64,000 nucleotides of DNA from NCBI GenBank assembly GCA_963702895.1, contig OY969767.1:1386506-1450505 (forward strand). The letters run 5' to 3'. A program made the translations under genes and the position numbers. Below are positions 5,773-28,500 of this stretch, piece by piece. The stretch comes from an uncultured Elusimicrobia bacterium (lineage in GTDB: Bacteria > Elusimicrobiota > Elusimicrobia > 2-01-FULL-59-12). The stretch's first letter is position 1; each line of letters opens with the position of its first letter. Under the pieces are notes generated by a model. The model was not told the DNA's origin. It did not search any database and saw only the letters and a program-made list of their open reading frames with translations.

Positions 5773-5845
5773 CACCGTCGAGCGCCATTCTTCTGGGCGA
5801 CGACCTCGAGTGCGGACGAGCCGGGACCAGCTCTCCTCGAACCCC

Positions 5846-6037: not shown

Positions 6038-6122
6038 GGGTTCAGAGCTCAGAACTCAGAGAGGGCGATGGTTTTATAAGAATCATCCTTATCTCTGAGC
6101 TCTGAGTCCTGAATTCTGAGCT
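6038..6122. repeat. Palindrome built on a CAGAACTCAGA motif
   Basis: CAGAGCTCAGAACTCAGAGAG...CTCTGAGCTCTGAGTCCTGAATTCTGAGC inverted repeat. A related AGCTCAGAACTCAGAAGGCAGAGTTCAGAA lies at 10061-10095. Confidence 0.6.
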
Positions 6123-6164
6123 GGCCGTTCCAGGCGGTGTATTTTCTGTGGCACTTTCCGTTGA

Positions 6165-6266
6165 GAACGGCAAACGTCGTAAATAGTAAATGGTGAATCG
6201 TGAACAGTATTTGCGCATGCTCCTACTCACTATTTTCTATTTACTATTTACGCCGTCTGCCGTTCC
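6165..6266. repeat. Palindromic repeat, family A copy 3
   Basis: GAACGGCAAACGTCGTAAATAGTAAATGGTGAA...TATTTTCTATTTACTATTTACGCCGTCTGCCGTTCC. Confidence 0.7.
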
Positions 6267-6485
6267 CCCCCTGGCTTGCGCCAGGCATCCTGCCCATGGA
6301 GTTCGGACTTTCCTCCCACCTCCGCTCATTCTTGCGCTTCGCGCGGCGATGAGCTACGGTGGGCAAGCCCCCCCTATAAAAAAGGGGCCTGCCCGCCATA
6401 GCTCTGCCGCAGCGCGTTAGCGCTAAGAGCGGGCGGAGGCGGGCGGCGCTCCGAATGCAGCTTTCAAAGAGCGAACAACAAAAGC

Positions 6486-10134: not shown

Positions 10135-10449
10135 TTAATTAATAAACCGAAGCGTCAACGGATAGCGCACGGATTCGCCTTTGTTCGCCCGAAGGCCCGC
10201 GCGGATGACGAGCAGGATATGCCCAATCAGAACCAGCGGCAAAAGGACAAACCCGATCAGAATGTAACAAAGCAAGCCTGCCACAAGAGCATAGACCGTC
10301 ACGGAAAGATTAAAATTCACGGCCTCTTTCCCCTGCTCTTGCAGAACAGGATCGCTCTTCCTCTTGAGGAGCCAGATCAACAGAGGAACCAGGACATTCC
10401 CCAGAGGTATCCCAATGTACAGGGAAAGTCCCGCGAGGTGACAGATCAT
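10135..10449 (-). CDS. Small membrane protein (DUF4870-like), translationally coupled to luxC
   Basis: 104-aa product MICHLAGLSLYIGIPLGNVLVPLLIWLLKRK... with two TM helices. ATGA overlap with the luxC stop at 10446-10449. The ORF-track N-extension was rejected. Confidence 0.6.
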   Translation of the reverse strand: MICHLAGLSLYIGIPLGNVLVPLLIWLLKRKSDPVLQEQGKEAVNFNLSVTVYALVAGLLCYILIGFVLLPLVLIGHILLVIRAGLRANKGESVRYPLTLRFIN

Positions 10450-11459
10450 GCTCCAATTGACGGTACTTTGTGTTGGTTCTCCCATGACGTTTCTCCTTTG
10501 ACTGAGTGTAGCACATCGGCAAGATTCACCCCGCCGTTGAGCCAGTCGAGTGGCGGTCTCTGCATTTGCCCCAAAGGACATAGGCGTGAAACACCAAGCC
10601 CCTGCAGGTCTCGTTCGAGCTGTTCCTGCCGACCAGTCTCGCCCGCATAACCCACGCAAGAAAGATGCGGCGCGAGGGTTCGCATCTTGTCGAGCACATC
10701 CTGCCAGCGCTTGAACCCTTCCAGGCGTGGTGCCACCTCCAGTGCGGCCCCCAAGGCCTGCCACTGACTCGGGTCCAAATTTTCCACAAAGATCACCTGC
10801 GGTGACAAGCAGCCCTGGAGCCGAAAGGGTTCAGCATCAGCGATGATTCGGTCCATCCAGACGTTCGAGAGTTCCTTTTGGGCTTCTTCAAAGACAACCC
10901 CGACGCTCAGTTGATGACCATACCCAACAAAGCGTGTCCCAGCAGGCACAGAGGCTTGGACGAGCCGAAGGGTCTCATCGGACCCATAGGCCACCACGAC
11001 ATCAAAGTCGCACAACAACGTTTCACTCCACGCCACGATGTCGACTAATTCTGAGAGTCTTTCATCCATACGCTCAAGCGACTTCTTCCATGCCATTGGA
11101 AAGACAGGCTCCCGAAACGATGGTTTAAGGGCCACCTTCCAACCCGATAGGAGGCTTAGCACAACCCCATGGACCCAGGCGGTAAAGGCGTTCGCCGGCA
11201 AGATATGGAGGACCGTTCGTCCGACGTTCGACGTCCGACGTCCCGACATCCATTGGAGGAGTTTCTCACACGTAAGTTCTTCAAAACAACTCGCAAGCGC
11301 GCGCTCGATCGAACGGCGGCTATAGCCAGTTGAAACTTGAAGGGCCTGGATCGTTTCCGACCGGAAGGCGTCGTCCGGATTCAGCCATCGCTCCGCAACC
11401 TGACCCAAATATTCTATCCGATGGTTCATGTTCGATAGGCCTCCGCCGATAGCGAACAA
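10446..11459 (-). CDS. luxC: Acyl-CoA reductase, LuxC family
   Basis: 337-aa ORF homologous to long-chain acyl-protein/acyl-CoA reductase LuxC (ALDH-like fold). Sits directly downstream of a luxE homologue. Confidence 0.7.
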   Translation of the reverse strand: MFAIGGGLSNMNHRIEYLGQVAERWLNPDDAFRSETIQALQVSTGYSRRSIERALASCFEELTCEKLLQWMSGRRTSNVGRTVLHILPANAFTAWVHGVVLSLLSGWKVALKPSFREPVFPMAWKKSLERMDERLSELVDIVAWSETLLCDFDVVVAYGSDETLRLVQASVPAGTRFVGYGHQLSVGVVFEEAQKELSNVWMDRIIADAEPFRLQGCLSPQVIFVENLDPSQWQALGAALEVAPRLEGFKRWQDVLDKMRTLAPHLSCVGYAGETGRQEQLERDLQGLGVSRLCPLGQMQRPPLDWLNGGVNLADVLHSVKGETSWENQHKVPSIGA

Positions 11460-12481
11460 CCCCGGACCTCAGCATTCGGAGCCCGACCAAGCAGATGAAA
11501 AGCGTCGGACGTCGAACGTCGGACGGACGTTCCAAGGTCCTCCGTCTGAACAGCCATCACGGAATCCACATTGGCCAGGTCAAAATGCCGCAAAAGGCCG
11601 GTTTCGCCTTCCTTGGCGAGTCCACCCGTCACCGAATCCACAACGATGGTTCGCGTCCAAGGAGGTCCTTGGAGAGAGGAAGTCCCCCCTCGTCCATAGA
11701 ATTGAGAACTGAGCTCACACATTCCATATTCATTAATGCATGCTTCTTCTGGGATGCCCAGGGATACTGTCACTTGCTGCACAAATTCTGGCCTGGTCAC
11801 CTGGCGTTTCTCTGTTTTCATTCCCCCCGTATCCATCAACCGGCTGCCAGGAGGAAGACGAAATATCTTTCCCGTCTTGCTTAGATAATCAAAGAATTTC
11901 AGGAAGCTAATCGTTGTGCCCAAGAGAGCCACCGGCACTCCGGTACTTTCCGACTCGCAAAGTTTCCGGAAGAGTTGTGTCTCGAGGAGAACACCTCGTT
12001 CGATGAAGGTGCCGCTACCGGGTGTGCCAAATTTGCGCTTGACGACCTCCAGCATCCAACTCAAGGAAGAGTGCGGGGCCTCCGCTGGAGCCGGCGCTAA
12101 CACCAGCATGGGCAGGCGCGCCTGGTCCGGCAAGACTTGAGATGAGAAAAAGCTCTCAAGCGAGCTCTCGTAGTAGCGAAGTGTCCGAAGATAGTGTTGG
12201 CTCCGGGACGATGAGGTCGTGCCGCTCGAACGAAACACCGCCGCCGCTTGGGCCACAGGAAAGGTGGCCAGCTCAGAGGACTTAAAGGCGGACACGGGAA
12301 CCGCGGGAATTTCCTGCCAGGTCTGGATCCGCACCGGACTCAGACCCTGCGCGCGGCAAAAGGCCTGATAGGGTTTGTTGCGCGCAAACTGATAGGCAAA
12401 AAGTTCAAGGGCGACAGACTCAAAATCACCCGTGCCCGTGCGCAAGAATTGCTCGATACGCTGTCCAAGGCTTTCGGTCAT
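11426..12481 (-). CDS. luxE: Acyl-protein synthetase, LuxE family
   Basis: 351-aa ORF resembling LuxE (adenylate-forming long-chain-fatty-acid ligase). ATGA overlap with the aminotransferase stop at 12478-12481. Confidence 0.7.
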   Translation of the reverse strand: MTESLGQRIEQFLRTGTGDFESVALELFAYQFARNKPYQAFCRAQGLSPVRIQTWQEIPAVPVSAFKSSELATFPVAQAAAVFRSSGTTSSSRSQHYLRTLRYYESSLESFFSSQVLPDQARLPMLVLAPAPAEAPHSSLSWMLEVVKRKFGTPGSGTFIERGVLLETQLFRKLCESESTGVPVALLGTTISFLKFFDYLSKTGKIFRLPPGSRLMDTGGMKTEKRQVTRPEFVQQVTVSLGIPEEACINEYGMCELSSQFYGRGGTSSLQGPPWTRTIVVDSVTGGLAKEGETGLLRHFDLANVDSVMAVQTEDLGTSVRRSTSDAFHLLGRAPNAEVRGCSLSAEAYRT

Positions 12482-13953
12482 ACGGTTTTTATGCCGTCAC
12501 CCCGGCGGAAGCCGGCCCTCCACACATCCGGCGGGCCGTCCGCCCTGCCGTGTGGCGGACGGGGTCCATCATTGTCGGCAAAGAATGGATAGATCCCCCG
12601 CTTACTACCGCGGGGGATGACGGCGAACAGTACCTCACAGAGAATATGGGTTGCCAATTTTAAATCATTTCCTGAAATGGTCAGCGGCGGCGTGAGGGTG
12701 AGCACATTGCGCCGGACTCCTCCGGACAAGACGATGAGCCGCTTCTTGAGCGATTCGGTGACCACCCGCGCGGCAAGCCTGGGTGCCGGCGTGAGGGTTT
12801 TCTTGTCTTGGACCAATTCGATGCCGATCATAAGCCCCAGACCGCGCACCTCTCCCACACAGGGATGATCGGCCAAGGCGTCCTGGAGTTCCCTGAGCCA
12901 CGGTTTGCCCACACGCGAGGCCCGCTCGGCCAGCTTCTTCGCTCGAAGTTCCTTCAGCGTCGCAAGCGCCATCGCACATCCCAGGGGATGGCCCAGAAAC
13001 GTGCTCGTATGGATGGCCTCGCCATCCGACGGCGGCCACGCGTCCATCGCGGCCCGTGTGCCCAGGCAGGCCGAAAGAGGAAAACCATTCGTCAGCGCTT
13101 TACCGACGCAGACAAGGTCCGGGTCGACGCCAAAATGATCCACCGCCAAAAACCGGCCGGTCCGGCCGGTGCCAGAAAAGATCTCGTCGTCGATCAAGAG
13201 CAGCTGATAGCGCCTCGCGAGCGCTCGCAAACCCCGTAGAAACACGGGGCCGGCGACGCGCACGCCGCCCCGGCCTTGCACGGGCTCCACGATAATCGCT
13301 CCAAAGGGCCCGGCGGGATGTTTCCCTTGCTTGAGGAGGCGCTCTAAGTTCTCAAGGCACCGCTCGGCAGAGTTCCCGCGGAGCTCATCGGGGAATGGCG
13401 AAAGCGCGCACCAGGCGGGCAGTTGATCTTGGAACGGATTTCGAAAATCTTCTCGATCGCACAACCCGAGGGTCCCGTAGCTCAGCCCATGGTAGGCCCC
13501 ATCGAAAGCGATCACACCTTTCTTGCCTGTCGCCAGGCGCGCCGTTTTGAGGGCAGACTCCACCGCTTCCGCGCCGGAGCTCGAAAGGATGGCGAGCGGA
13601 AATCGTCGCGAAGTGGCCACGCTCAAGGCCTCAAGGAGCTGAACTTTGACCGCATTGGGATGCACGTCGCCCATGCCATGCCACATCTTTTGGCTTTGTT
13701 TTACGATAGCGCGCTGGACGCAAGGTGCCCCGTGACCCAACCCGGCCACACCGAAGGCGCTCGTGAGGTCGAGATACCGAGTGCCGTCCACGTCCCTCAC
13801 CCAGGAGCCTGCGGCGGACTCCCAGAACACGGGAAAGTCATCCGAGAGGTAGGTGATATTCCTGGACTCGACCCGGCGCAGCCGCCGCGCAAGCTGTCGG
13901 GATTTCGGACCCGGAAGGCGACTAGGGTGAGCGAGCGAAGTGAGTCGATTCAT
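12478..13953 (-). CDS. Class III (PLP-dependent) aminotransferase with MITE-encoded C-terminal extension
   Basis: Aminotransferase class-III motifs (…GAEAVESALKTARLATGKKGVIAFDGAYHG…, PLP-lysine region). The last ~45 codons (…PRGSKRGIYPFFADNDGPRPPHGRADGPPDVWRAGFRRGDGIKTV) are read through repeat element B1. Confidence 0.85.
   Translation of the reverse strand: MNRLTSLAHPSRLPGPKSRQLARRLRRVESRNITYLSDDFPVFWESAAGSWVRDVDGTRYLDLTSAFGVAGLGHGAPCVQRAIVKQSQKMWHGMGDVHPNAVKVQLLEALSVATSRRFPLAILSSSGAEAVESALKTARLATGKKGVIAFDGAYHGLSYGTLGLCDREDFRNPFQDQLPAWCALSPFPDELRGNSAERCLENLERLLKQGKHPAGPFGAIIVEPVQGRGGVRVAGPVFLRGLRALARRYQLLLIDDEIFSGTGRTGRFLAVDHFGVDPDLVCVGKALTNGFPLSACLGTRAAMDAWPPSDGEAIHTSTFLGHPLGCAMALATLKELRAKKLAERASRVGKPWLRELQDALADHPCVGEVRGLGLMIGIELVQDKKTLTPAPRLAARVVTESLKKRLIVLSGGVRRNVLTLTPPLTISGNDLKLATHILCEVLFAVIPRGSKRGIYPFFADNDGPRPPHGRADGPPDVWRAGFRRGDGIKTV
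12493..12623. mobile_element. MITE-like palindromic element, family B copy 1 (termini GCCGTCACCCC…GGGGATGACGG)
   Basis: ~130 bp. Near-identical to 41401-41537 (shared core GCCGGCCCTCCACACATCCGGCGGGCCGTCCGCCCTGCCGTGTGGCGGACGGGGTC). Internal hairpins. Inserted in-frame in the 3' end of the aminotransferase gene. Confidence 0.75.
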
Positions 13954-14020: not shown

Positions 14021-15405
14021 GAGTTACCATCAAAAGTGCTGGAAATAGGTTCTGAGGCAAGGAAGGATTTGCCTTAGGAATAGATAACGGCGTACCCTTT
14101 CGTTGAACCAAACAAACCTGTCCGTTCAAGCGGACAATAAACGAAAAGGAGACGCCGTTATGAAGACCATTGTAAACGTGAAAGGCTGCGAACACAAAGA
14201 GAGCATGCTGGATTATCTGGCCCGAGAGGGAGCGCGCAAAATGCTGGTGGAAGCCCTGGAGGAAGAAGTGACGATGTATCTGGAGCGGCGGCGCTATGAG
14301 CGGGCGAAGAGCCTGGAGAAAGGCTATCGCAACGGAACCCGGGAGCGGAAGGTGACAGTTTTGGGAGCAGGTTTAAAGCTCTCGGTGCCGCAAGTCGACG
14401 GGGGCGAGTTTGAGTCGAGCATCTTGCGTCCGTACCAGCGGCGAACCGAGGGTGTCGAGGAGTTATTCCGGCGGCTGTACCTGGAGGGGCTCTCGAGCCG
14501 GGACTTTGAGCCGGCGATGCGAGCACTGATCGGGGATGGAGCCACCTTATCAGCCAGCACGATCCTGCGTTTATCGGCGAAGTTTCAATCGGACCTGGCC
14601 ACCTTCAGCCGCCGGGACTTATCCGAAACGCGTTACGCCTATGTCTGGGCGGACGGCGTGTACTTGAAGGCCGGGCTGGAGAAAGAGAATACGGCGCTTT
14701 TAGTGTTGGTTGGCGTGAATGCCGATGGGAAGAAAGAGCTGATTGCTCTGATGGAAGGCTACCGGGAGAGCCGGGATTCCTGGAAGGAAATCTGGCGAGG
14801 GGTGGCGGAGCGTGGAATGCCCGCTCCGCTCTTGGTTATCGGCGATGGGATGGGTGGGCTCTGGGAGGCGGTGGCGGAGGTCTATCCGACCGCCAAAGAT
14901 CAACGGTGCTGGAAGCACAAGATGCGCAACGTCGTGGATAAAGTGCCGAAGGCCAAGCAAGAGGAGGTGCTCAACCGTCTGCGCGTAGCGTATCAGGCGG
15001 AGCGTCGAGAAGACGCGGAGAATCACCTGGCCTTGTTAGCCGAGGACCTGGAGATTCGCTACCCGAAGGCGGCGGCTTGTATCCGGAAGGACCATGACGC
15101 CTTGCTGCGCTACTTCGACTTTCCGAAGGAGCACTGGGTGCATTTAAAGACGAGCAATCCGATCGAGTCGGTCTTCGCGGGGGTCCGATTGCGAACTCGC
15201 GTTGTGCGGCGGTTTCAGAAATCTCGCACGGGAGTAGCGTTCGTCTACAAAATCATTGAACGCCTGGCGCAATTCTGGAAGCCGATTGAGAAGCCGGAAT
15301 TGGTGATGGGATTATTCGTCGAACGAGAGAAGCTGGAGGTAGCGGCCTAAGAGACTTTCGACCAAAGGGGCGCCGATCGATTTCCATCACATTTGACTAA
15401 AGCTC
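14021..15405 (+). mobile_element. IS256-family insertion sequence (1385 bp) flanked by 9-bp direct repeats TGTGTCCTG (14012-14020 and 15406-15414)
   Basis: Imperfect terminal inverted repeats GAGTTACCATCAAAAGTGCTGG (left) and rc GAGCTTTAGTCAAATGTGATGG (right), 15/22 identical. Single transposase ORF inside. Identical 9-bp flanks. Confidence 0.7.
14103..15350 (+). CDS. IS256-family (mutator-type) transposase
   Basis: 415-aa ORF (likely start MKTIVNV at 14160) with conserved IS256 transposase regions (…YLERRRYER…, DDE-containing core …VWADGVYLK…ALMEGYRES…). Confidence 0.85.
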   Translation: MNQTNLSVQADNKRKGDAVMKTIVNVKGCEHKESMLDYLAREGARKMLVEALEEEVTMYLERRRYERAKSLEKGYRNGTRERKVTVLGAGLKLSVPQVDGGEFESSILRPYQRRTEGVEELFRRLYLEGLSSRDFEPAMRALIGDGATLSASTILRLSAKFQSDLATFSRRDLSETRYAYVWADGVYLKAGLEKENTALLVLVGVNADGKKELIALMEGYRESRDSWKEIWRGVAERGMPAPLLVIGDGMGGLWEAVAEVYPTAKDQRCWKHKMRNVVDKVPKAKQEEVLNRLRVAYQAERREDAENHLALLAEDLEIRYPKAAACIRKDHDALLRYFDFPKEHWVHLKTSNPIESVFAGVRLRTRVVRRFQKSRTGVAFVYKIIERLAQFWKPIEKPELVMGLFVEREKLEVAA

Positions 15406-15522
15406 TGTGTCCTGGGCCGTCGATACCCATATTTTATGGGTCTTTTAGGCCCGTATTTTTGGCCTTCCCTACTATATATTCATTGCCGGAAACCCCCTAT
15501 TATTAAGGAGACTAGATCTTCG

Positions 15523-18500
15523 ATGATTCCCTTTATATTTCAGCGATTTGTCGCACTTCTCCTGGTCCCCTCCCTTCTCGTGGACCCGCTCACGGCGGCT
15601 GCCTTATCCAATGAAAGTCCGAGACCTGTTGACTTGGCTGCCGCACGCGGCGTCAATTTCCTCAACCAAGCCTTAATGGAGAGGCTGACAGGCGCTGAAT
15701 TCCATCCTGCCGCATCGCCAAAACATATCAGTGTCGTGAAGGATTTAATTCAAAGATTGAGGGAAGCCGCGAAAGGGAAAGTTCAGGGCGGGTCGTCAAC
15801 CGATCATCCGTCCTCTGGTAAGGTCGGCCATGGCGATACCGCAGGCTCCGTTAACGGAAATGGTATGTCGCGGCGTGATTTGCTGAAGCAATCTGCGCTG
15901 GCTTTGATGGTTCAGAACCTTCCGGCAGCGGCTCAAGCGGCTCTCGAGGCAGTCCCCATGAAGAGGCGCACGGCTTTTATCCAATTTCTCAGTGCCTTTC
16001 AACAAACACTTGAAGCCTTGCCGCGCGAGGTGAGAGACTACCATCAGGACCCCGACCTCCAGATGGGTGCCGGCAAATTCGGAGAGTTGGCAGACGCGAT
16101 CAGATCCTTGCGCGCTCAAGGAGCTTCGTCAGGGTTCAGCTCGGGCGCGTTGGGGGATTTGCAGGACATCTTTAAATTTTTGCAAGGGTCCGTTCGTCAA
16201 CAGGTGGCGTCTCCGGAGTGGCAGACCCGATTTGCTCCAGAGACGCTCAGGATGCTCCAACTCGCAGCCTCGTCACCGAATGACTTTGAGCTGGAATATC
16301 GTGTCGGCCTCTCCTGCCGCTGGCTGGAAAGCAACGGTATACAGGTAAGCCGTGAGGCAGCCCTGCAATCCGCGCGCGACGCTGTGGTGACGGGGCAAGA
16401 GCCACTTGGCGACTACCTTCAGAAGTGGCTTACGCCGCTCGTTTCAGAGCGTGTCGCGCCTACGGTCGCGCAGGAGGCGCAGCAATTGGCTCGCCTCGGC
16501 GCAAACCCAATTCAAACGGCGGATGCTTTTGCCGTGGAATTCATCCGTGAGTTCCAAAAACATCCTGGCAACGCTTTCTGGCCGAATCCGGATAAATTCC
16601 AGAAATATGTTCATGGCCAGGCGCGGCTCAAGGCGTTAGATGCGTTCCGCAGCAGCGTCAGCGAATTGGGGACGACCCTGGCGAAGGCTGGGGTCAGAAT
16701 CGACGGCGGATTTGTGTCAGCATACAGCAATGACGACTGGGGTTTTAACAAATGGATGAAGGATCCCGCTGCCTATATCCAAGAGATCCGAAGAATCACT
16801 TGGACTTCGCATGTCCGCGGAATGATGTTACAGCGGCTCGAAGAAAAACGGTCACGCTACAACCACGTCGCCTACCAGCGATTGAGAGACAGCATCTTTG
16901 ACATCCAGGACGAGGGCCTCGATCTGGACGCGGACCCCGACACGCTGTTCCACCAGCTCGAGTCCGCCATGGACGCGGAAGGAATCAACCGTCTCCCGGC
17001 AATTCCCGCGAACCGCGTGCCGCCTCCAATGTCCCAGGTTAAGGCACCCGGCGGCGTGCCCGCGGATCTGGATTCGCTCGTCAAGGACATTGCCGAGAGA
17101 GCGACAGCGACGGATGTCGAGGTCCGGGTCTTTATGGATGCGAAGGGGGCCGTCCGGTTTTTCGACATCCGCCCCTTGGATCCAAACGTGAGAGGCTTGC
17201 TGAGGACCCTGAGAGGCGCAGACCTCCCGTTCCTGAAGAAGAGGAACGGCCGCCCAGGGTGGCGTTACGGAATGCGCATCTCAAAGGGGACGCCTGCCTC
17301 AAAGATCAAATCGCGTCTCTTGTCGGGACTCGATTCTGGCCTCTGGCTGGACTTTTACACGGCGCCGCAGCATGACGGATCCCGCCTCCTCCCAGCTCAA
17401 GAGCCGCAAGCGAGCGAACCACTTTTAGCGCCCCGGATGAGCATTTTCAGCGGCCCCGAGTGGTTTGAACGGTGGGGCGCCCCCCTGGAAAGCGTGATGG
17501 TGGGCGCTCTGGCCAGCGGGATCCCGGCGCTTCTGCTTCTCCTTGTGGGCGTGGACTCAAGTGCTCCGACTGTCCTAAACGAGGCCGTCTTGTTGCCCGC
17601 GATGGCTTTGCTGATCTTGACCTTGGGCCAATGGTTGGCCGTTGACCTGTATAGCGGGCGGCATCCTTTGGATCGAAGGGAAGCATGGGACCGGTTGATC
17701 CGAAATGGCACATGGCTTCGGACTCCGCCGCAGAAGGTGCACGGTTGGGCCACGCGCATTGCCCTGGGCGCTGGCGCCGCGGCGCTGCTCCTGCAGGCCA
17801 CGCCGGTACTACCCCTCAGCCTGGCGTCCTACCTCGCCGTCGTCGCAGGGACCTACACGCTGACCCATCTGGCCGTTCATTTCCACCACAATCTCACCCA
17901 CGACAGCGACTTGCGCATGAGCCTTCGTCCGGCCGTACGACCTCCGCTCAATATCCCGATCATGGAATCCCTAAGAGAGCGATGGAAATCGATTTTGATC
18001 GCCGCGCTGTCTCCTCTTCCGTTTTATCTCATCCCCAGAATTATACAGAGACTCATGAAATGGCCGTTTCCTTCGGATCTGGAATTTATGATCACACTTC
18101 TGTTCGGTTTTGCGATCGGCATGGCGGGCATGATCATCTATGAAACAGCCGCGCATACGCTGAAATCTCAACGTGGGGCGGGGACCGAACCTTCGGGACC
18201 CTTGGTGACCCAGGGCTTATATCAATGGGTCCGACACCCTATTTACATGGGTTATTTCCTTGCCTACGGCGGAATCCTGTCGATGTTCAGCTCTCTGATT
18301 ACCACCGTGCCCTTATTTGTCGTTCTCCCTTCGGTGGTCTACTACTGTGTCGACAAAGCGGGCGCGGAAGAGACCCACTTGCATGCTCGGTTCGGCGATT
18401 TATATCGTGATTACGCGCGCCGCACCCCTTCCTTTTTCCCCTTCCGGCTGCCACGGCTCCGTCTGATGTCGGCAACGGCTCCCGCGGTCGACGGCCAACA

Positions 18501-21500
18501 CGAAACTCAAGACCCGGATTCCGAAATCGCCGTTGAGGAGAAGCCTCTCGTCATCATGGCCGAAGATGACCGCCTGCGCCGGCCGCGTATCTTTGACGAG
18601 ATCACAAAATTCCTTGGTGATGCCTATGCTTATCGCGTCTGCAACGATGGGCTTGAAGCGTGGAAAGTCATTGAGGACGCTATAGCATCCGGCCGCCCCA
18701 TTGCCCTTCTCGTCACCGACATCTCCATGCCCGGAATTTCGGGATCGGAATTGACGGCACGTCTGCTCGCGTTGCACCCATATGTCCCCATCATCATTCA
18801 TACCACCGAAGCTATGGACGACCTCAGACAAGCGTTCATGGACCCCCGCGTTCGAATCGTTGCCAAAGAAAATTACGCTGGCCTTCGAAGCGATATTGCG
18901 GAACTTCTGAAGTTGCCCCCCAACGCCGCGGTCGGTAGCGCGGATTCAGCTCCGATGCCGCAGGATGACCCATCACCCGCCAAAAAGACAACTGAACCGG
19001 CCGCGGGGACTCCTGCAACTCCTGAGCCATCGTCCACAGAACCACAAGCATGGTTGTCGTCGTTCCACGACCAAACCGAAGTCTGGGTGTTCTTCTTGAT
19101 CGGCGCCTCCCTGCTCGCGGCCCAAGGTCACATCTTCCCGGTGACCGCGGACTCCGAGACGATGCCTGTGGGTCTTCCCGTGTTTCTTGGATTGGGGCCC
19201 CCTTACAATTTCATTGTCGGTGCTTTTGATCGGGCCCTCCGCCGGATTTTTCCACCTCTGTTTTCGGGACCGGCTGAAGCGTTCACAAATCTGACGCCGG
19301 AATGGTTTCGAGCGTCCTACAGCGCTTGGCTGCAAACTAAGCGAGGCCGTGCGCTCACGACGGAGGAAGAAACTGAAATTGATCGGTTTGCGCGACTCTT
19401 GGCTCCCCCGCTGAATCCCATACGCGCAGAAAAACCGACCTGGAAGGACGAATGGAACTCTGCGTACCGGTACATTTTTTTAGGGCAACCTTTGGACCTC
19501 AAGTCAAAGCGCGCACCAGCGGAAAACGCGACCTCCCTTGGTGAATTGAACGACGCGCTGAAGATTATCGACGGCTACCCCCGCCTATGTTTAACGGCTG
19601 CCCCCTTGGCGTTTAAGATCCTTCAGGCGCGGGGCTTTTCCGTTCGAAGGGTGAGACGGACGAGATTCGAGGGGATCGTTGAACACGAGTATGTCGAAGT
19701 CGAAGTGGCGGGGCAGTGGCTCATTGTTGATTTGGTGGCGAGCCAATTCGGCATCTTGCAAACCTGGGGTGTTGTCGCGATCCCGAAAGAAATCGCGACA
19801 TCCGAGCCTGCCGTGCAGATCTACACGTACGGGGAAGCGGTCGTAAAGGAACAGGCCTTGCTGCCATCCAACCCTGAGACCCCAGGTGTTAGCGATAGCC
19901 GCGATCTCATCGGACTTGACGCGGTACGGTTTGTTCTATCGAATCAGATGGGACGGAGACTCCCCGAGACCACCATTCAAGAATTGACCAGCTACATCGA
20001 AGACTTCTTAAGGGCGCATCAGCTGGAATGGTTGCTGGACCGTGCCAGCATCACGGAGACACGACAGGGGGTGCGGGACAGCACCTCGGAGCTCCATGCA
20101 GGGCACCAAAACCAAAACAGCCTCGACTGGGTCGAACCCGCGCTGGCTGCGCGCGGCGCCTCCAGGGACACGATCTACCAGCTCAGGTACACTCTGCCTG
20201 GACGATCTCCTCGTAACACTCACGCCGTTTATGAAGCGGTGTCTGCTCTCCTGTTGACGCTCGTGCCGGATGACGTGCCAGTCTATCGCTGGATCGAGCC
20301 CGCCCATGCTGGCCTCCCGGGCGGCGACAGCATGCGAAGCTATTGGGCCGTTGCAACGGCCCAAAACAACAAAGACTTTGCCCATTCAGGCCGTATCCTT
20401 CTTAAAAGCTATTTTGGACGCCTCAGGCAGACAGGCGTCTTGGTTGACGATACGGGCGTTGACTTCCCAGCCATCTCTCTGATCCATGATCGAAGAAACG
20501 GCCTTGTTTCGCATGAGGTTGTAACTCCTCAACTCGTGCAACCTGGTCCCACCGCATCCACGCTTTCCTCTGCTTTCTCAATACTGGCGGTCTGGTTGCC
20601 CATCCTGATCGGCGCCTCCCTGCTCGCGGTCCAGATGGCATCCGGCCAGTTCTTCCCGGGAGCCGCACAACCAGAAGCCCTGCAGGCGGGCGGCGCGGCC
20701 ATGGGGCTGGGCTGGCTCTTCTTGCGTTTGATGGATCTGGTCTCTGCGCCTGAAGGACGCCACGTGGATCCAAGCCCGTCCAGGACGGCGAAAACCCAGG
20801 CGGCCGATCTGGGAATAGTCTTCAAGCCCCATCTGCTTGAACAATTGCGATATGCGCTCCAAGGCCCCCGTATCGAAGTTTTGAAACGGTTGTTGGAGTG
20901 GGCGGAAGGGTCCGAACTGCGAGGATTGTATCTTCGCACTACCCTGATGCAGCTTGTCGAGGACAATCCCTCATTCGGGGATCGCTTTCATCAAAAAACG
21001 CTTGCCTTGTTCCGGGAGCTGCGCTCGACACCGACACGTTCGACGGTGCAGTACCTGGCATCCCTATTCACGAAAGACAGTACCGCAGGGGTATGGCTAA
21101 AAAACAACCGGATATTCTTGTGGGACGCCACTCACACCTTCGAAGGTCGAATCAATGTGCGGTATTCCCTAAGCTCCGGCCAACGTCAAGCCTTGGTCGG
21201 CGATCTTCTTGTCCCGGAGTCCGGCTCCACCTTCCTGCTGGAATCGGTCCGGGAGGTCTTGAACGACAACCGTATTGGCGATGACGATTTGAACTATCCG
21301 CTGCAGGTAACAATGATTCAGGAAGGGCTTCGTCAAAAGGTTTACGCCGTGTTCGTCGAATTGAAGGACGGCCGAATGGCGCCGTTTGTCATATCGGTGC
21401 CCCAGAGCGTGAAGCAGAACAACATGGTCAGGAAGGAATTCGAATACTTGCGCCTCCACATAGGTGATCCGCATGCTTTGAGCGTCCTTCGATTAGGGTC

Positions 21501-22467
21501 TGTCAAGCTGGGCGGCACTAAATTCTATGTTTACAGCAGTCTTTTTCTTGACCGATATTCCGAAGTGGTCTACCACCACCGGAGGGCTGGTCTCTTTCAA
21601 AGTAGCCCGGGAGCGTTTCTAGCAACATCCTCGCAGCCACCCCAAACGGTGAGGCTGACCCCCTACGACGCAGCGCGAGTTCTTTCCAAAATTGTCGCCG
21701 TCCTGGTTCATTTTTATGATCCGGAAAAACGCACCATGCTGGGCGGAGTTGATGTGCCTGCCGGAGATTTCAACTTCCCGGATTCCGCGTTCCTGGATTT
21801 CGAGCCGCGAACAGCCACCGTCATTGACACAGACCAACCGGTGAAACTGATCGCCTGGCGGTCCATCGCCCATGGGGTCGACCCAGCAGCATTTATTGAT
21901 TACGTCCTGAGCCTGCGCTATTTGAATTCCAATCCCAGGCTCATTGATTTTGACAGCAACCTCAAAATCGGTGTCCTTGCAGGATTGCGAAGCGGGCTGA
22001 TTGCGCGGTACGGATACGAGGAAGGCCAGCGAATACTAACACGCTGGTTCCAGGCGTATGCTGATGCCGTTGATCAGGACCGGTTTATAGAAAATGGATT
22101 TTTCCAACTTGATGCGCTGCACGGATTCCTGGAGCAGCTCACGGCTCCCAACTCCGGGAAAGCCGGCCCTCGACCCGAGCCGGCGGTTCGCTCTTCCCGC
22201 GCCGGCAAGCTTATCGGCATCCTCTTGATCGCTGGTGCCGCGGCTGCCGCACGTCACGCTGTCCCGGGAATCATCGACATCGGCGCGGGTTCCGATTTGA
22301 TCGGCCGGATTGCCGGGACAGACCTGTTCGCTGGCTCGGCAGTTACTCAGGCCGGCGGCTTGGGCGTGGCGTTGGGCTTGCTCATGGCTTATGGCCTGGG
22401 CGCGCTGAGCCGCCGCTTGGCAAAGAACCATCCCGCTCGTCAACGGGCCTTGGGGCGGGCGGCATGA
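15523..22467 (+). CDS. Giant mosaic protein 1 (~2314 aa): signal-like leader, ICMT-like methyltransferase, CheY-like receiver, transglutaminase-like domain, four hydrophobic-hairpin modules
   Basis: Uninterrupted ORF. Start taken at MIPFIFQRFVALLLVPSLLVDPLTAAA, with GGAG 9 nt upstream. ICMT/PEMT motif …YQWVRHPIYMGYF…EE..L…FGDLYRDY (≈18196-18440). Receiver D…TDISMPGISG…K (≈18541-18915). C/H/D transglutaminase-like core (≈19571-19760). C-terminus …TQAGGLGVALGLLMAYGLGALSRRLAKNHPARQRALGRAA. Confidence 0.8.
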   Translation: MIPFIFQRFVALLLVPSLLVDPLTAAALSNESPRPVDLAAARGVNFLNQALMERLTGAEFHPAASPKHISVVKDLIQRLREAAKGKVQGGSSTDHPSSGKVGHGDTAGSVNGNGMSRRDLLKQSALALMVQNLPAAAQAALEAVPMKRRTAFIQFLSAFQQTLEALPREVRDYHQDPDLQMGAGKFGELADAIRSLRAQGASSGFSSGALGDLQDIFKFLQGSVRQQVASPEWQTRFAPETLRMLQLAASSPNDFELEYRVGLSCRWLESNGIQVSREAALQSARDAVVTGQEPLGDYLQKWLTPLVSERVAPTVAQEAQQLARLGANPIQTADAFAVEFIREFQKHPGNAFWPNPDKFQKYVHGQARLKALDAFRSSVSELGTTLAKAGVRIDGGFVSAYSNDDWGFNKWMKDPAAYIQEIRRITWTSHVRGMMLQRLEEKRSRYNHVAYQRLRDSIFDIQDEGLDLDADPDTLFHQLESAMDAEGINRLPAIPANRVPPPMSQVKAPGGVPADLDSLVKDIAERATATDVEVRVFMDAKGAVRFFDIRPLDPNVRGLLRTLRGADLPFLKKRNGRPGWRYGMRISKGTPASKIKSRLLSGLDSGLWLDFYTAPQHDGSRLLPAQEPQASEPLLAPRMSIFSGPEWFERWGAPLESVMVGALASGIPALLLLLVGVDSSAPTVLNEAVLLPAMALLILTLGQWLAVDLYSGRHPLDRREAWDRLIRNGTWLRTPPQKVHGWATRIALGAGAAALLLQATPVLPLSLASYLAVVAGTYTLTHLAVHFHHNLTHDSDLRMSLRPAVRPPLNIPIMESLRERWKSILIAALSPLPFYLIPRIIQRLMKWPFPSDLEFMITLLFGFAIGMAGMIIYETAAHTLKSQRGAGTEPSGPLVTQGLYQWVRHPIYMGYFLAYGGILSMFSSLITTVPLFVVLPSVVYYCVDKAGAEETHLHARFGDLYRDYARRTPSFFPFRLPRLRLMSATAPAVDGQHETQDPDSEIAVEEKPLVIMAEDDRLRRPRIFDEITKFLGDAYAYRVCNDGLEAWKVIEDAIASGRPIALLVTDISMPGISGSELTARLLALHPYVPIIIHTTEAMDDLRQAFMDPRVRIVAKENYAGLRSDIAELLKLPPNAAVGSADSAPMPQDDPSPAKKTTEPAAGTPATPEPSSTEPQAWLSSFHDQTEVWVFFLIGASLLAAQGHIFPVTADSETMPVGLPVFLGLGPPYNFIVGAFDRALRRIFPPLFSGPAEAFTNLTPEWFRASYSAWLQTKRGRALTTEEETEIDRFARLLAPPLNPIRAEKPTWKDEWNSAYRYIFLGQPLDLKSKRAPAENATSLGELNDALKIIDGYPRLCLTAAPLAFKILQARGFSVRRVRRTRFEGIVEHEYVEVEVAGQWLIVDLVASQFGILQTWGVVAIPKEIATSEPAVQIYTYGEAVVKEQALLPSNPETPGVSDSRDLIGLDAVRFVLSNQMGRRLPETTIQELTSYIEDFLRAHQLEWLLDRASITETRQGVRDSTSELHAGHQNQNSLDWVEPALAARGASRDTIYQLRYTLPGRSPRNTHAVYEAVSALLLTLVPDDVPVYRWIEPAHAGLPGGDSMRSYWAVATAQNNKDFAHSGRILLKSYFGRLRQTGVLVDDTGVDFPAISLIHDRRNGLVSHEVVTPQLVQPGPTASTLSSAFSILAVWLPILIGASLLAVQMASGQFFPGAAQPEALQAGGAAMGLGWLFLRLMDLVSAPEGRHVDPSPSRTAKTQAADLGIVFKPHLLEQLRYALQGPRIEVLKRLLEWAEGSELRGLYLRTTLMQLVEDNPSFGDRFHQKTLALFRELRSTPTRSTVQYLASLFTKDSTAGVWLKNNRIFLWDATHTFEGRINVRYSLSSGQRQALVGDLLVPESGSTFLLESVREVLNDNRIGDDDLNYPLQVTMIQEGLRQKVYAVFVELKDGRMAPFVISVPQSVKQNNMVRKEFEYLRLHIGDPHALSVLRLGSVKLGGTKFYVYSSLFLDRYSEVVYHHRRAGLFQSSPGAFLATSSQPPQTVRLTPYDAARVLSKIVAVLVHFYDPEKRTMLGGVDVPAGDFNFPDSAFLDFEPRTATVIDTDQPVKLIAWRSIAHGVDPAAFIDYVLSLRYLNSNPRLIDFDSNLKIGVLAGLRSGLIARYGYEEGQRILTRWFQAYADAVDQDRFIENGFFQLDALHGFLEQLTAPNSGKAGPRPEPAVRSSRAGKLIGILLIAGAAAAARHAVPGIIDIGAGSDLIGRIAGTDLFAGSAVTQAGGLGVALGLLMAYGLGALSRRLAKNHPARQRALGRAA

Positions 22468-22518
22468 TCCAACTCCTTGCCCGGACCCTTCGCAGAGATG
22501 CAGAAAATCCAGGTTTTT

Positions 22519-25500
22519 ATGCATAGGACCATCCGAAGATCCGCTGCCGTCCTTTTGATTGTCTGCTTGGTGGTCGATCCGGCAACGGCGGCCGCTTTTT
22601 CGAGCAGCCCCCCCCTCTTGCCGCGGCCGTTGGCCAAAAGGTGCCCTCCCATTCCGCGTTTGAAACCCAAGCCCTGACTTTGGTCCTGGCGGCCAGCATC
22701 TTCTTCGGCGCGGCGCTCCATTCTCCCGGGCATCCGCCGGTGGCCAAGACCGTCGCGATGCTTCCGGCGGAAGATCGGACCCGCTCCCTGGGCGCCAGGC
22801 GAAAACGCAGGCCCCGGGGTCCGCGTTCTGCGGACGATGTTGCGAGGGCTCGTCCCCAACGGGTCAGATCAACAGCGGCAGATTTTGTGAGGCAACAAGC
22901 CGCTGCCGGTCGCCTCGCCGAACTCCCCTATCGTCACAAGCTGATACTGACGGAACGATTCATCAAAGGGACATCTACGAAGAGGTTTGCTGTTCTTCAT
23001 GACATGACAGTAACGGCGGTCATAAGCGCAACCAGAACAGCCTTATTGGAATTGCGTCGATTGGTCAAGCCCGCCGCAGTTGAGCCCGCAGGATCTGGAG
23101 ATAACGGTCGCGCCGCACCCGCGCCTTCGGTCACGCACGCAGCAGACGCTGGAAACGCTGCCGGAACATCTCTTCCGGCAATTTCTCAGGATCAGCAATC
23201 CATCCTCGTCATATACCCTAACCTGAAACTCCTCCGCATCATGCATCCACCTGTCAAATCTGCATTGGATGATAACGGGCAGGACAGCCTGAGCCAGTTG
23301 ACCGTACCTCAAGACCCTGAGCTTTTGGACAAATTGGGCATCGATCCTACAGAGCTTCACATCGTCATTGCCGGATCAACAGTGGATGTGCTGAAGATCC
23401 CCTCCAGCGATTGGTGGGTTTCTCACGACCCTCAAGTAGAGCAAGTCAAATTTCTTTGGATTCTGGTGCGCTCCTTGACCAACGAAAAGGGTTTGGTCGT
23501 GATCTCCCCGTGGAGTGATATCACCGATGCTCGCACGCAACTTCAAGCACTGAAAAAGGCTTATTCCTTGACGGGGCGAATAGAACGCTCCCCGCAAAAT
23601 GACTATCCGACGCGCGACAAAGACGTCATCGTACGGCGGCGGGTGCGAGTCCTGGCCGTTGGGCCTGACTCGGACGCACCGTCGGAAACCGCGTTTCAAC
23701 TCTTGAGAGTCAACACGAATCCAAAGTTGAAAGAAAAGGCAGATTTGGACTGGAAAGTCATCCAAACCCTCCAGACCTTCCAGGGAGACAGGCTCTCAGA
23801 GTTATGGGATGTGCTGAAGGCTCAAAAGATCCAATGCGATCTGGACAGCTTAAGGGCCAGCTTAAAGCGTATCACGACTCTCACAAATGCTGCACCTAAT
23901 GAGATTCAAAGGAGCAGGGAGTTTGATCGGGGCCCAAAGAGGCAGAGGACCCGCTTGCCCGCACAGAAACCGCTGATCTTTAAATCGGACTTGTCGGAAG
24001 AAGCCCTTGCTGCCTACACCGAAAAGGTTCCGGTTTTCGAGCGTCAGATTACGTACCAAGAGTTTGTGACACAGAACTATGACCCCGATCGCCGCTTGGA
24101 GGAGATTACACGTCAACTTCCTGGGTGGAACTCCCCTGATCGTGTTTCCATCCCGATACTTGTTAACCATCTTCTGAAGAATGCATTTTTCCCGTTTCCG
24201 GACCGGTCCAATGACCGGCAAGCTCACGTGTCCATGGAAATCAGCATGCTTGAGCCGTCGGATCCAGAAGAGCCCAGGGTCGTGAATATCCGCATCCGTC
24301 AACCTTCGAGCACGCAGGCGGATTGGAATCGGTTGGAAGTCAATCATCGTGGATGGGTGAATCATGATCTCTTTTATTTCGCTCGCCCCGAATTGCGCGG
24401 CGACGAAGGCGCTCTGAGACCCGCTGGTCCTTCAAATCCAGCCGGAACAGGTCATGGGCTTTTGTTAGTCGCCCGGGTCTTGGCTGAGACACCTGCCTTA
24501 TTGAAATTCACGCGCAGTTCCGATCCTCCATACTCCTTACAAACCGATCTGTACATCGCGTTAAGGGACCGCGGGACGCCCCGCCCGAACGTCTCGGCCG
24601 GCAGACTGGCGATCTGGCTCCCCTTCCTGCTTGTCGCGGCCGCCGCAGCACAGATCGTGCTAGGCCACTTCTTGCCGGAAGCCGGTCAGCCGGCCTTGCC
24701 TGTCCTGCAGGCCGGCTTCTCGAGCATTCTCGGGCTGGGAGCATTGCTGACAGCGGCCTTTCAGCCGCGATACGCCCCGGAAGGCGGCGGGTCAGGCTCC
24801 GGAGATAGCGCACCGGCCAGCGGTGTTGCCGCAACGGACGTCGTGAGCAAGCTGCAAATATATGGCGTCCCGGTTGAAACGGATTCGCGCGGTACTTACG
24901 TGTCCCCGTCGCAAATGCCCCAGGCACCCTGGGTGATGGACCGCATGCGGGATCCGGAACAAGGAGCCCTCTATCCCATCCATGATATCCCCTCCCTGAC
25001 GCTGAGTTTTCCACTGCATGAGCTCCCGGCACTTTCCAGGGACAGCCTTTCGATAAACTCAAGCGGTGTGTTCCTCGGCTTCGTAAATGAACTGGATCAT
25101 CCTGTGGCCATTAAAGTTTTGAACCGAGATCAGGGAGATACGGAACTCATGAACGCTCAAATCCTTGGCCGGATTGGGGGCAACCCCGCTTTCTACGGCG
25201 TGATTCGCCTCTCCGACGGAGGGCTGGCCTATGCCATGCAGGCGGTTCGCTGCCTCCCCCTGGCCGAAAGCCTCGATTCGCAAGACAAGCAGTACTTGGC
25301 TGAACGTGAGCTCCTGAAAAAACGCGCGATGACCCTGGCCGGCATATCGCTGATCGCATTTCGCAGAACACCGGAAGGCCACGCCATCGGCATCGACGCG
25401 GGGGATGCCGGCGTCGTCGATGCAATAACCTACGGCCGTTACATCGCTGAACGGACCGCGGCCGCCCCCAAACGGAACGTCTGGATGCCGATCCTGATCG

Positions 25501-28500
25501 CCGTGAGCGCGGCCGCGCACATGGCGCTGGAGCACCTTCAATCTTCGATTCTTGGGTTTGGTCTGCTCAACGGACCGATCGACATGGCCGGGTTAGATTG
25601 GTTCGCCGAAGCGATGGTCTCTCAGGCGGGCGGGCCGGCGATCGCGCTGGGCTTTCTCGCTTGTGCTTTGTTTCAGAGGCTATGGGCGCCGGCTGATCGC
25701 GGGTACGGCTCGGGCGACACCAGCCCTACCACTACACCAGCCGAGAATGCCACTTCGCCTGCCCCGACCTTCCGGTCGGCCGGGGAATTGTTCGGAAGCA
25801 CTGTTCTCGACAGGCACCCGGGTGCCGCGTTGGGTGATCCGGCGCCGGAAGCAACCCCCTCGCCAGGATACACCCGGCCTTTGGACCAAGCCACGTTGGA
25901 TCGGGTGGCCGCTCTTTTGGAACGCCGGGGACTTGGTTTTCTGCGACGCGTTGTGGGCATCACCAGGGTCCAAGTGACGGAAAAGCACGCTGCTCTTTAT
26001 CTGATTAGGTCCACCATCCAACACCTTCTATTCACGAAGTCGATTTTCCAGGAAATTATCGTTCCGGATTTCGAGACCAACAAGATGCTCACGAGGATCC
26101 TCGCCCGCCTCCATGAACTGTTCGACCCTGTGACTCTGCTCAACAGCTTGTCGCAAACGGATGTCTATCAGGACTTGCCCGAACCGATCCGCCAGCGCTT
26201 GGCGGAGGCGCGCAAGCAGTTACCGCCTTCAAGAACGATGTCGGAGTCGAATCAAGACACGCTCCGGCTCATCGTCACAATCGGACTCTTGCACGAGCTC
26301 GGCAGGGTCATCTGGGATTGGATGCGACAGCTGGGGGATGATCCGCCAGGCATTGACGAGGAGGAACTGGCTGCCGACAAGCTGAACGAGTGGAGACGAC
26401 TGGCAGACGCGGCGGACCCGGACCTCTTGTGGGTCCGCGCCGCACTCAACGCGTACGGGCCGGGCCGACGCGAAGATGGCAGCAACACTTTTCCCGCCCA
26501 GCTCTTTGCCGAAAAGTTCGCCGTGTGGGCGTATCCGCCATTGTCCCGTTACTTTGGCGTGAAGCTTTCCGAAAAAGAGACCCAATTCTTTGACGAGCTT
26601 GCCATTTTCCTTCAAGCCACGACGGCGCAGCCCGGCCCCATTGTGCCGGCCGGCGTGTCAGACTTCTCGGTTGACATATTCATCGCCGGCGTGGTGCTGG
26701 ATTCCCCCGAGGGGGAGAAGGTCGCAGCGGCGAGCAAGGCGTATCATGCGGCCAAGGAGGTCGTGACGCGATTACAGAATCAACACCGTTCCAAAGGTCA
26801 CTCACCTATTCACGGGGACAGAGACCTCGAGGAAAGGACTCTTGTCGCCCGTACCCGGGACATGCAAACACGAGAGCGTGAACTGCGCGAGGCTTTGGCC
26901 GCTGCCGCCCATTCGGAGCAACCGCATTACTTCAATGGCGTGCTGAACGCGCTGGTGAGGTTGTTTGTCGCCGGCCAATTGCCCGCGGACGACCACACGT
27001 TCGAAGACTTTCTGCGGCAGAACCGGGAGGTCAAAGAGAGCCAGGATGCGTGGATCCAGGATCACCGGGACAGCGAAGAGGGCGTCTTCAGCCTTAAGAC
27101 ATTACGGTTCGTTGCGTGGAAAGCCGTTCATGCAGCTCTATTGACGAAACTGCATCGGGATAATGGAGAGGCCATGTGGCACGCCCTGCAAAGAGTCGAG
27201 CAAAGGCTTAAGGCGTTACCGAAAAAGGAACGAAGCGAGCTCATCAAAGACAAAGCATTCATTGAAGGTGTGAAGAGCTATGCCCGCAAGGCTGGCGCCG
27301 ATGTGCACGCAGAGTGGAACAGTACCTCTCAGGAAGGCATCGCCGGCGTGGTCATAGGACCCTCCCAGACCAACCGATCAGCTGTCGCGAGGAGCGACGC
27401 GGCCCCCGCCGCTGGCGATACGGCAGGCGATGAGAAGGTCAGCATCTCTCTGGATGGGGCCGCCACCCTAAGGACCCGCTCTAGCGCGCTCGCCATTCAA
27501 GATCTGTTGCACCCTGCCATTCCCATCCGTGTGATGAACGACGAAGCGGGACGGCTGGTCTCCGGTCGAACACAACTCTGGACGGTCTGGGACACTCCAT
27601 TGGATAAGTTTGAGACCGATCTCGACTTTCATATTTTGACGTATCTCAAGACTCTTTTGGAACGTTATCCGGGCCGCCGGATCACGGTCGTGGATTGGGG
27701 GTGCGGATCGGGGAAGGCGATCAGCGAACTTGCCCGCCTAGCCAAAGAGTTGAGCCCCAACCTCCGACTCATCGGTTATTCGGACCAGATTTACCGTGAT
27801 TGGAATGAGGCTCCGGAGAATGTCACTTTCATTCTGGACACAGCAGACCAGCTGCCTGGTTATTTCAATGATGGAGACATTGACCTCGTCGTCAGTCATC
27901 ACGGATTCTCCAAGCTCGGGGCGGACTATATTGGGCACCTGCGCCAGATGCACGGCCGAATGGCACCCCATGGAATCATTCGCCATCACAATGCGGGCTG
28001 GAGCATCAGAATCCATCAGGCACTTCCCGAGTACAGCATCCGATACTTTCCCTCGAAATGGCGGCGTCATGTGATTGAATTTGCCCCACTCCTGGTTCAT
28101 TTAGACCCCGCACTCGCGTTGGACCAAGAGGCCCGGAGAGGAGAAAAGCACGCTTCTCCTACCCCAAAGGCAAATGAGACTCAGACTCAGCCCGCGCCCT
28201 TTCTTCTGCAGGCGATTGAACACCATCAGCCAGACGACACGTTTCCCCTTATCCATCTTCGCTCCAGCAAGACGAAGGAACCTTTCCAAATACGACTTCG
28301 GCAATGGAATCCTTTGGATTTTAGTATTGAAGCTTCGGGCCGCCCCATCGGGGAGCTCAGGCTGAAACGGCTGTCCAATGCATTGGAGCTCAGCAGGATT
28401 CAACTGTATGAAAGATATGAACGCCGCGGTATTTCGGACGCCGTCATCCAGTGGCTTTCCGGTCAATTGGATGAGCGGCACCCCGCGCTCGAGCTCTCCA

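Follow-up and report, generated by a model that had tools for sequence, protein, structure and literature searches.

A positionally conserved N-terminal leader on three giant, otherwise dissimilar proteins of an uncultured Elusimicrobia bacterium

Results

Three giant genes open with the same leader peptide

The 64,000-nucleotide (nt) stretch of DNA analysed here (the window) lies on contig OY969767.1 of an uncultured Elusimicrobia bacterium and carries three giant genes on its forward strand, which is also the strand of every feature within them described below. These encode proteins of 2314 amino acids (aa) (g1, 15523-22467), 2467 aa (g2, 22519-29921, when a run of eight C residues is read as nine, as set out below) and 3506 aa (g3, 30851-41371). 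On translation each is found to begin, at its start codon (15523, 22519 and 30851), with a short leader peptide, and the close similarity of these three leaders is the subject of this study. They had been aligned in an earlier note on this DNA (the original prediction), and the peptides quoted there are borne out by translation, by a regular expression and by a profile hidden Markov model (HMM).

Each leader divides into a basic n-region, a hydrophobic h-region of 11-12 residues and a c-region of seven residues. That of g1 (aa 1-27, 15523-15603) reads MIPFIFQR, FVALLLVPSLLV and DPLTAAA, with a predicted signal peptidase I (SPase I) site after A27; that of g2 (aa 1-26, 22519-22596) reads MHRTIRRS, AAVLLIVCLVV and DPATAAA; and that of g3 (aa 1-26, 30851-30928) reads MPKSLIR, IVALILVPCMLL and DPSSAFA. 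The n-region charges are R8 in g1, R3, R6 and R7 in g2, and K3 and R7 in g3. The c-region follows the pattern D-P-x-[ST]-A-x-A throughout and, counted from the predicted cleavage sites (AAA-L in g1, AAA-F in g2 and AFA-E in g3, the last letter being the +1 residue), it places Pro at -6 and Ala at -3 and -1 in all three proteins, with +1 never a Pro. Two details of the original prediction need adjusting: of its 'invariant LxDP', the D-P is indeed invariant and always follows two aliphatic residues but the Leu is not (g2 reads V-V-D-P), and its 'Pro-containing hydrophobic core' does not extend to g2, whose core has no Pro.

The regular expression and a profile HMM built from the three sequences, both run on all six-frame segments of the window, recover exactly these three sites at 50-61 bits (52, 61 and 55 bits for the g1, g2 and g3 leaders, respectively), with the runner-up at 6 bits and no copy inside the giants. 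The same profile reaches a maximum of 17 bits in 310 kb of unrelated bacterial DNA, and a degenerate codon pattern derived from the leaders matches the window three times where shuffles give an expectation of zero. Aligned with one another, the leaders contain 34 identical pairs and have a sum-of-pairs score of 149 (z = 8.1), which none of 20,000 shuffles reaches. Since residues were shuffled only within their own region (n, h or c), each of which kept its composition, the similarity is positional and is not the mere likeness of one hydrophobic stretch to another.

The assigned start codons are supported by several observations. Public gene calls for g1 and g3 begin at the same codons as the leaders, an AAGGAG sequence lies 12 nt upstream of the g1 start, and the sole alternative in-frame ATG for g1 (15436) falls inside a terminator-like hairpin (15435-15455). 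For the g3 leader there is no in-frame upstream start codon.

The leader is retained while the proteins behind it diverge

Pairwise BLASTP of the three giants detects the leader and short hydrophobic linker elements only, with no long collinear similarity, so that recent gene duplication alone, which the original prediction had named as a refuting explanation, does not account for the leader. Past the leader, alignment similarity is weak between g1 and g2 (z = 3) and absent between g1 and g3 and between g2 and g3, one short motif (F-x-x-Q-A-L) excepted. At the DNA level most synonymous positions of the leader differ between copies (for example, Ala is GCA, GCC or GCG, Leu is CTG, TTG or CTC, and Asp is GAC or GAT) and yet the peptide is kept, which shows that selection acts on the peptide. 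The 5' untranslated regions (UTRs) of the leader genes have no significant similarity; a promoter or 5' UTR element shared by g1 and g3, hinted at by a MAFFT alignment, was unsupported by blastn-short and was set aside. Scrambled synonymous sites, almost unrelated bodies and dissimilar 5' UTRs together indicate that the leader copies are old and that the peptide has been held by selection. Signal peptides usually drift faster than the proteins they carry. The leader, by comparison, is far more conserved than the proteins behind it; its fixity while thousands of downstream residues diverge beyond recognition marks a constraint that needs explanation.

The excepted motif, F-x-x-Q-A-L, occurs once per giant, 20-35 residues beyond the leader and starting at aa 46, 48 and 61. 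It reads F-L-N-Q-A-L in g1 (aa 46-51, 15658-15675), F-E-T-Q-A-L in the giant open reading frame (ORF) of g2 (22659-22676) and F-G-I-Q-A-L in g3 (aa 61-66, 31031-31048); its joint shuffle probability is about 7e-9, for a motif that was picked post hoc. A basic stretch follows at about aa 70-110 in all three giants.

A homopolymer separates the g2 leader from its giant frame

In the window as assembled, the frame that begins with the g2 leader (ATG at 22519) stops after 52 codons, and the giant ORF (22641-29921) lies in another frame. The two are separated by a C8 homopolymer (22608-22615, forward strand), and a single C added to this run fuses leader and giant into a stop-free frame of 2467 aa; contrary to the original description, the g2 leader is therefore not the N-terminus of the giant ORF in this window and is joined to it only with C9. 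An independently assembled Logan contig of the same organism (L083, from run ERR11561443, 9690 bp), which contains g1 and the first 849 codons of g2, is identical to window positions 15376-25064 throughout except that it has C9 in place of C8, and g2 is called in it from the leader ATG. That F-E-T-Q-A-L is read in the frame after the shift provides independent support for the join of leader and giant.

The C8 run is probably a homopolymer error of the assembly, given that two other genes show similar single-nucleotide homopolymer differences. The essential gene rpoD is split into ORFs at 43459-44607 and 42857-43336 (reverse strand) by a 1-nt deficit in a G6 run in the region 43459-43480, after ...LIQEGG, and the splitting of an essential gene points to homopolymer indel errors in the assembly. 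In lepB, the window has AAAA at 60749 where a second Logan contig (L002) has AAA, the sole difference in 9666 bp; the called product is 319 aa in the window and 257 aa plus a 30-aa fragment in that contig. True phase variation of g2 by a tract that is off at C8 and on at C9 is less likely, although the two states are exactly those seen in the window (off) and in the otherwise 100% identical L083 (on). Indels of this kind break both g2 and rpoD in the assembly and will mislead gene callers.

Soluble modules and hydrophobic hairpins in the giants

The g1 and g3 products exist as public protein records, both from a single 2,724,539-bp contig and each a singleton at 90% identity; an exact look-up of g2 in three forms found it absent from the public protein collection. 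In g1, an N-module (aa 28-652) is followed by a polytopic block resembling the membrane methyltransferases ICMT, PEMT and LmtA (about aa 653-975) and by a receiver domain (aa 1011-1107). A word-indexed search of 5.8 billion clusters found no homologue of g1 but itself, an exhaustive HMMER search of 1.84 billion representatives found none but itself for aa 1-655, and a GTDB genome scan gave no match to g1. The multiple sequence alignment for the ICMT block held two matches only, with 24% coverage, and an AlphaFold2 model of the N-module made without an alignment was unusable (predicted local distance difference test score 47.8).

In g2, a second hydrophobic segment (ALTLVLAASIFFGAAL, aa ~52-70, 22671-22727) runs into a very basic sequence, RRKRRPRGPR, and could pair with the leader as an N-terminal hairpin; an S-adenosylmethionine (SAM) methyltransferase domain lies at about aa 1725-1821. 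In g3, a NagB-like domain (aa 148-513, 31292-32389; PDB 7lqn, E = 8e-30; TIGR00502, 5e-46) keeps the LPTGSTP, FNMDEY and GH.AFNE motifs and contains an insertion of ~120 aa. The GNDGH of E. coli NagB is replaced by GSRGH, with Arg for Asp at a position that we take to be Asp141 of the E. coli enzyme. This domain is followed by a SAM-methyltransferase-like domain with an intact ELGAGLG SAM motif (aa 715-846) and by a lone transmembrane segment (TM) (aa 1099-1117, 34145-34201).

Throughout the giants, soluble modules are separated by conserved hydrophobic hairpin-like elements flanked by Arg and Lys. Five of these are of type A, three in g1 (aa 1178-1258, 1681-1764 and 2238-2312, corresponding to 19054-19296, 20563-20814 and 22234-22458) and the others in g2 (24585-24842 and 25452-25754); five more are of type B, at 28692-28916 and 29649-29891 in g2 and at 36152-36385, 37223-37465 and 39233-39427 in g3. 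A near-identical type C pair (aa 555-597 and 915-949, or 32513-32641 and 33593-33697) flanks the methyltransferase-like domain of g3, so that g2 has type A in common with g1 and type B in common with g3, with type C confined to g3. The giants also end alike, each with a hydrophobic hairpin and a basic tail (...GRAA, ...RQAA and ...LRAAA for g1, g2 and g3) encoded at 22234-22464, 29649-29918 and about 41110-41368, respectively; an AA ending is found in 2/26 of the other proteins of the window.

The leader has the sequence features of a Sec signal

A positively charged n-region, a short hydrophobic core, Pro at -6, Ala at -3 and -1 and a residue other than Pro at +1 define the classical substrate of signal peptidase I. 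By rule-based inspection, the leaders carry every one of the sequence features of a Sec/SPase I signal: they lie at the extreme N-terminus, with a basic n-region, an h-region within ~7-15 residues and a c-region that obeys the cleavage-site rule, in agreement with the Sec-like character, basic n-region and AxA-type site originally proposed. When 19-residue windows are scored for free energy of membrane insertion, the best one in each leader comes to +3 to +5, and the strongest internal TMs to about -1 to +1.5. The core, which is ended by Asp-Pro, is shorter than the ~18 residues needed to span a membrane and appears too short for a stable anchor. A partner TM is found in g2 only (aa 52-70), and comparison of the N-terminal unit with internal hairpin types A and B by hhalign gave a probability of <1%.

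Other classes of signal were rejected. A lipoprotein (SPase II) signal is not supported, as no leader has a proper lipobox, [LVI][ASTVI][GAS]C; g1 has Ser at the aligned position, and in L-I-V-C of g2 and L-V-P-C of g3 the -1 residue is not a permitted one and more hydrophobic core follows the Cys. A twin-arginine translocation (Tat) signal is contradicted by the occurrence of RR in g2 only, with QR in g1 and IR in g3, and Tat models gave no match to the three N-termini (NCBIfam at E up to 10, Pfam at E up to 1). A type IV prepilin leader, with its G followed by [FM]-x-x-x-E, is absent in all three. The YSIRK, ESPR and KxYKxGKxW motifs are likewise absent by eye, and hmmscan of the three N-termini (Pfam at E <= 1, NCBIfam at E <= 10) found no relevant match to them.

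Searches for further carriers and for a dedicated machinery

Two loci in JGI metagenome contigs matched the leader pattern; in either case the match fell on one and the same TM helix inside a GGDEF protein, and both were discarded as chance. The leader codon pattern had 0 matches in viral contigs, and PADLOC returned no matches. A word-indexed search of the leader alignment against 5.8 billion protein clusters yielded eight word-sharing candidates, none of which scored, and was insensitive in that it did not return g1 and g3 themselves, possibly owing to the HMMER bias filter. A search of the 64-kb window for co-occurring dedicated peptidase or secretion genes came upon ordinary lepB only (60349-61308, reverse strand), a signal peptidase I of the Peptidase_S26 family that stands beside lepA and is the sole, and general-type, candidate for a processing enzyme.

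Genomic context

An IS256/Mutator-family transposase gene (14103-15350; Pfam, E = 9e-73) lies directly upstream of g1 and is followed by the terminator-like hairpin mentioned above. The rest of the window is ordinary chromosomal DNA, including a penicillin-binding protein (transpeptidase) of the dcw cluster, RNase P RNA, a luxC-luxE-aminotransferase row, rpoD, dnaG, dnaK-grpE-hrcA and lepA-lepB. LepA has a best identity of 61% to GTDB representatives among the matches listed, which are scattered over phyla, and both DnaK and LepA are singletons at 90% identity; together these values place the organism in a lineage that is deep and has been sampled thinly.

Between g2 and g3, a gap of 930 nt contains a 191-aa ORF (29923-30498, reverse strand), a putative gene without a Pfam match, and a perfect 26-bp palindrome, TGAAGAATAGTCATGACTATTCTTCA (30677-30702). 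A GC-rich 30-nt hairpin (30817-30846) ends 4 nt before the start of g3, which has no obvious Shine-Dalgarno sequence; these features jointly suggest operator-like and translation-control-like elements. Just 3' of the g3 stop codon, C7, G7 and C8 runs are clustered within 120 nt (41508-41629). Elsewhere, the bacterial class A RNase P RNA (5742-6383, reverse strand) is 642 nt long against a model of 367 positions and must carry one or more large insertions. Genes for a luxC-like acyl-CoA reductase, a luxE-like acyl-protein synthetase and a class III aminotransferase stand in a row at 10446-13953 (reverse strand), an arrangement suggestive of a fatty aldehyde/amine-type pathway with no connection to the leader.

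Discussion

A signal that may start membrane insertion

The explanation that we favour, with moderate confidence, is that the leader is a genuine, family-specific Sec-type N-terminal signal, which would serve for targeting by the signal recognition particle (SRP) and Sec and as the start of membrane insertion for the giants, all of which are polytopic. Its hydrophobic core would be bound by SRP (or SecA) once about 30-60 residues had been synthesised; the ribosome would then be brought to SecYEG/YidC, and the leader would insert with its N-terminus on the cytoplasmic side, the orientation that the positive-inside rule predicts for a leader that is basic before its core and has an acidic D behind it. 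Synthesis of the rest of each protein, 2300-3500 residues long in all and with many hydrophobic elements, would then take place at the membrane and not in the cytosol. On this account the leader would start the insertion of polytopic proteins, and export of the whole protein would not be its role. In g2, the second TM (aa 52-70) and the strongly basic stretch behind it would immediately bring the chain back into the cytoplasm, and with these in place the g2 leader cannot mean secretion of the whole protein. Cleavage at A-x-A by ordinary LepB is plausible from the c-region sequence. The conservation of the leader would then reflect purifying selection on the targeting and insertion step, possibly together with a partner that also reads F-x-x-Q-A-L. 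Should the leader be just such an efficient start signal, it would exemplify a way of keeping giant polytopic proteins from the cytosol.

The original prediction had found it surprising that a Sec-like leader should precede normally cytoplasmic domains. This is explained in part, as the giants are polytopic and, in g1, the receiver domain and the active site of the ICMT block lie behind membrane segments; for g3 it is not explained, and several observations, there and in g1, weigh against the explanation just given. In g3, the NagB-like and SAM-methyltransferase-like domains follow the leader before any strong TM, and were these enzyme domains exported, the cofactor and substrate concerned (SAM and glucosamine 6-phosphate) would not be expected in the periplasm. 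In g1, the best positive-inside solution for the ICMT block, obtained by hand, has eight TMs, which would make the N-module (aa 28-652) cytoplasmic and so clash with a translocating leader. The clash disappears if seven TMs are read, but one Arg-rich loop is then left outside. Topologies drawn by hand (Kyte-Doolittle hydropathy, an insertion free-energy scale and flanking charges) gave conflicting parities for g1 and g3 and are not relied on. Lastly, the sample is of three leaders, all from one genome.

Alternative explanations

Alternatively, the leader would remain uncleaved and form the first limb of a membrane hairpin or anchor at the N-terminus, as the earliest in the series of hydrophobic elements by which otherwise cytoplasmic enzyme modules are fastened to the inner membrane; the segment around F-x-x-Q-A-L would return the chain so that the N-modules stay cytoplasmic and nothing is exported. 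We regard this as possible, though clearly the less probable account. It gives a natural place to the NagB-like and SAM-methyltransferase-like domains in the g3 N-module and agrees with the eight-TM model of the g1 ICMT block, which puts aa 28-652 in the cytoplasm. The second hydrophobic segment of g2 (aa 52-70), with RRKRRPRGPR behind it, is a real one; the basic stretch at ~aa 70-110, as expected on the cytoplasmic side, is present in all of the giants, and the internal elements are likewise flanked by Arg and Lys on both sides. However, the segments that would have to return the chain are not hydrophobic in g1 (FLNQALMERLTGAEF) and g3 (FGIQALVPPSWLSRP), where no window passes any TM threshold. 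A core of just 11-12 residues that ends in D-P is typical of cleaved signals and not of anchors, and hhalign shows no likeness of the N-terminal unit to the internal hairpin families. In g3, moreover, the lone TM (aa 1099-1117) would pair in parity with a leader that crosses the membrane, a pairing that would place the NagB-like and methyltransferase-like domains in the periplasm.

It is unlikely, in our estimate, that leader and F-x-x-Q-A-L together form a dedicated sorting tag for a lineage-specific machinery (an accessory Sec system, a special peptidase or an assembly factor), akin to the YSIRK or KxYKxGKxW leaders of Gram-positive bacteria. The leader is conserved far more than the mature parts, Asp-Pro occupies -7/-6 in every copy, another conserved motif is found past the predicted cleavage site, and the three genes are clustered, all of which such a tag would lead one to expect. 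Set against this, the 64-kb window contains no candidate machinery, only lepB in its usual lepA-lepB context, and neither the window nor the JGI metagenome and viral contigs yielded another carrier. Across these three collections, nothing beyond conservation points to the dedicated sorting signal that the original prediction had suggested. A broader version of this idea, which we consider equally improbable, is that the two motifs would be the address tag of an undescribed class of orphan giants in which conserved hydrophobic hairpins would hold unrelated enzyme modules (ICMT and receiver, NagB-like, SAM methyltransferases) in a string along the membrane, the tag being read by lineage-specific machinery that directs or assembles the giants at a particular site and the expression of g2 being switched by the C8/C9 tract. 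Were a dedicated tag real, it would point to a novel route of protein sorting, in a bacterial lineage that is deep and poorly sampled.

That the leader has no special function and is left over from common ancestry or from 5'-module shuffling among mosaic genes, with any working signal being constrained, is very improbable: the giants are indeed mosaic, with short elements in varied combinations (g2 shares type A with g1 and type B with g3), and an IS256-family transposase lies directly upstream of g1, but a generic signal constraint keeps composition and not positions, whereas the leaders outscore all within-region shuffles, their R, A, L, D-P and A-x-A are invariant although scrambled synonymous sites mark the copies as old, and the similarity does not reach into the 5' UTRs.

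Relation to known systems

The reading of the leader as a Sec-type signal that starts insertion would tie it most closely to ordinary Sec/SPase I signal peptides, with which it shares its N-terminal position, basic n-region, core of 11-12 residues, Pro at -6, Ala at -3 and -1 and non-Pro residue at +1. It differs from them in being conserved position by position on otherwise unrelated proteins, in its invariant Asp-Pro at -7/-6, in the F-x-x-Q-A-L motif 20-35 residues further on and, in g3, in the cytoplasmic-type enzyme domains that stand behind it. What is new here is a lineage-restricted leader, the one sequence feature that unites all three very large orphan proteins; most of its interest lies in these proteins and in the clash in g3 between an export-type leader and the cytoplasm-type enzyme domains that follow.

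YSIRK-G/S (PF04650), ESPR (PF13018) and KxYKxGKxW (TIGR03715) offer a precedent for a signature on a Sec signal that is common to a set of very large proteins. In these systems the signature lies in the n-region and is linked to a particular secretion site or route. In our leaders, by contrast, it lies in the h and c regions, there is no HMM match, and the carriers come from one genome only; we know of no pathway associated with this leader. The Mycoplasma Vlp/Vsp lipoproteins and the leader-region repeats of Neisseria opa and pilC also combine a conserved leader with divergent bodies and clustered genes, and a further likeness is the homopolymer just behind the g2 leader, whose length differs between two assemblies. 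The giants, however, are not lipoproteins and have no repeat-driven bodies, and the homopolymer difference is probably a sequencing error.

The bilobed hydrophobic hairpins of chlamydial Inc and similar proteins resemble the internal elements of the giants in their paired hydrophobic helices, short loop and basic flanks; by analogy, the elements may tether the large soluble modules to the membrane. In contrast to the Inc hairpins, with which they have no sequence similarity, the elements recur many times per polypeptide, and the leader is not detectably related to them. The leader itself is a member of none of the named leader sub-classes: it would work most like an ordinary Sec/SPase I signal and is conserved like the family-specific leaders and like those of paralogous surface-protein families whose bodies diverge.

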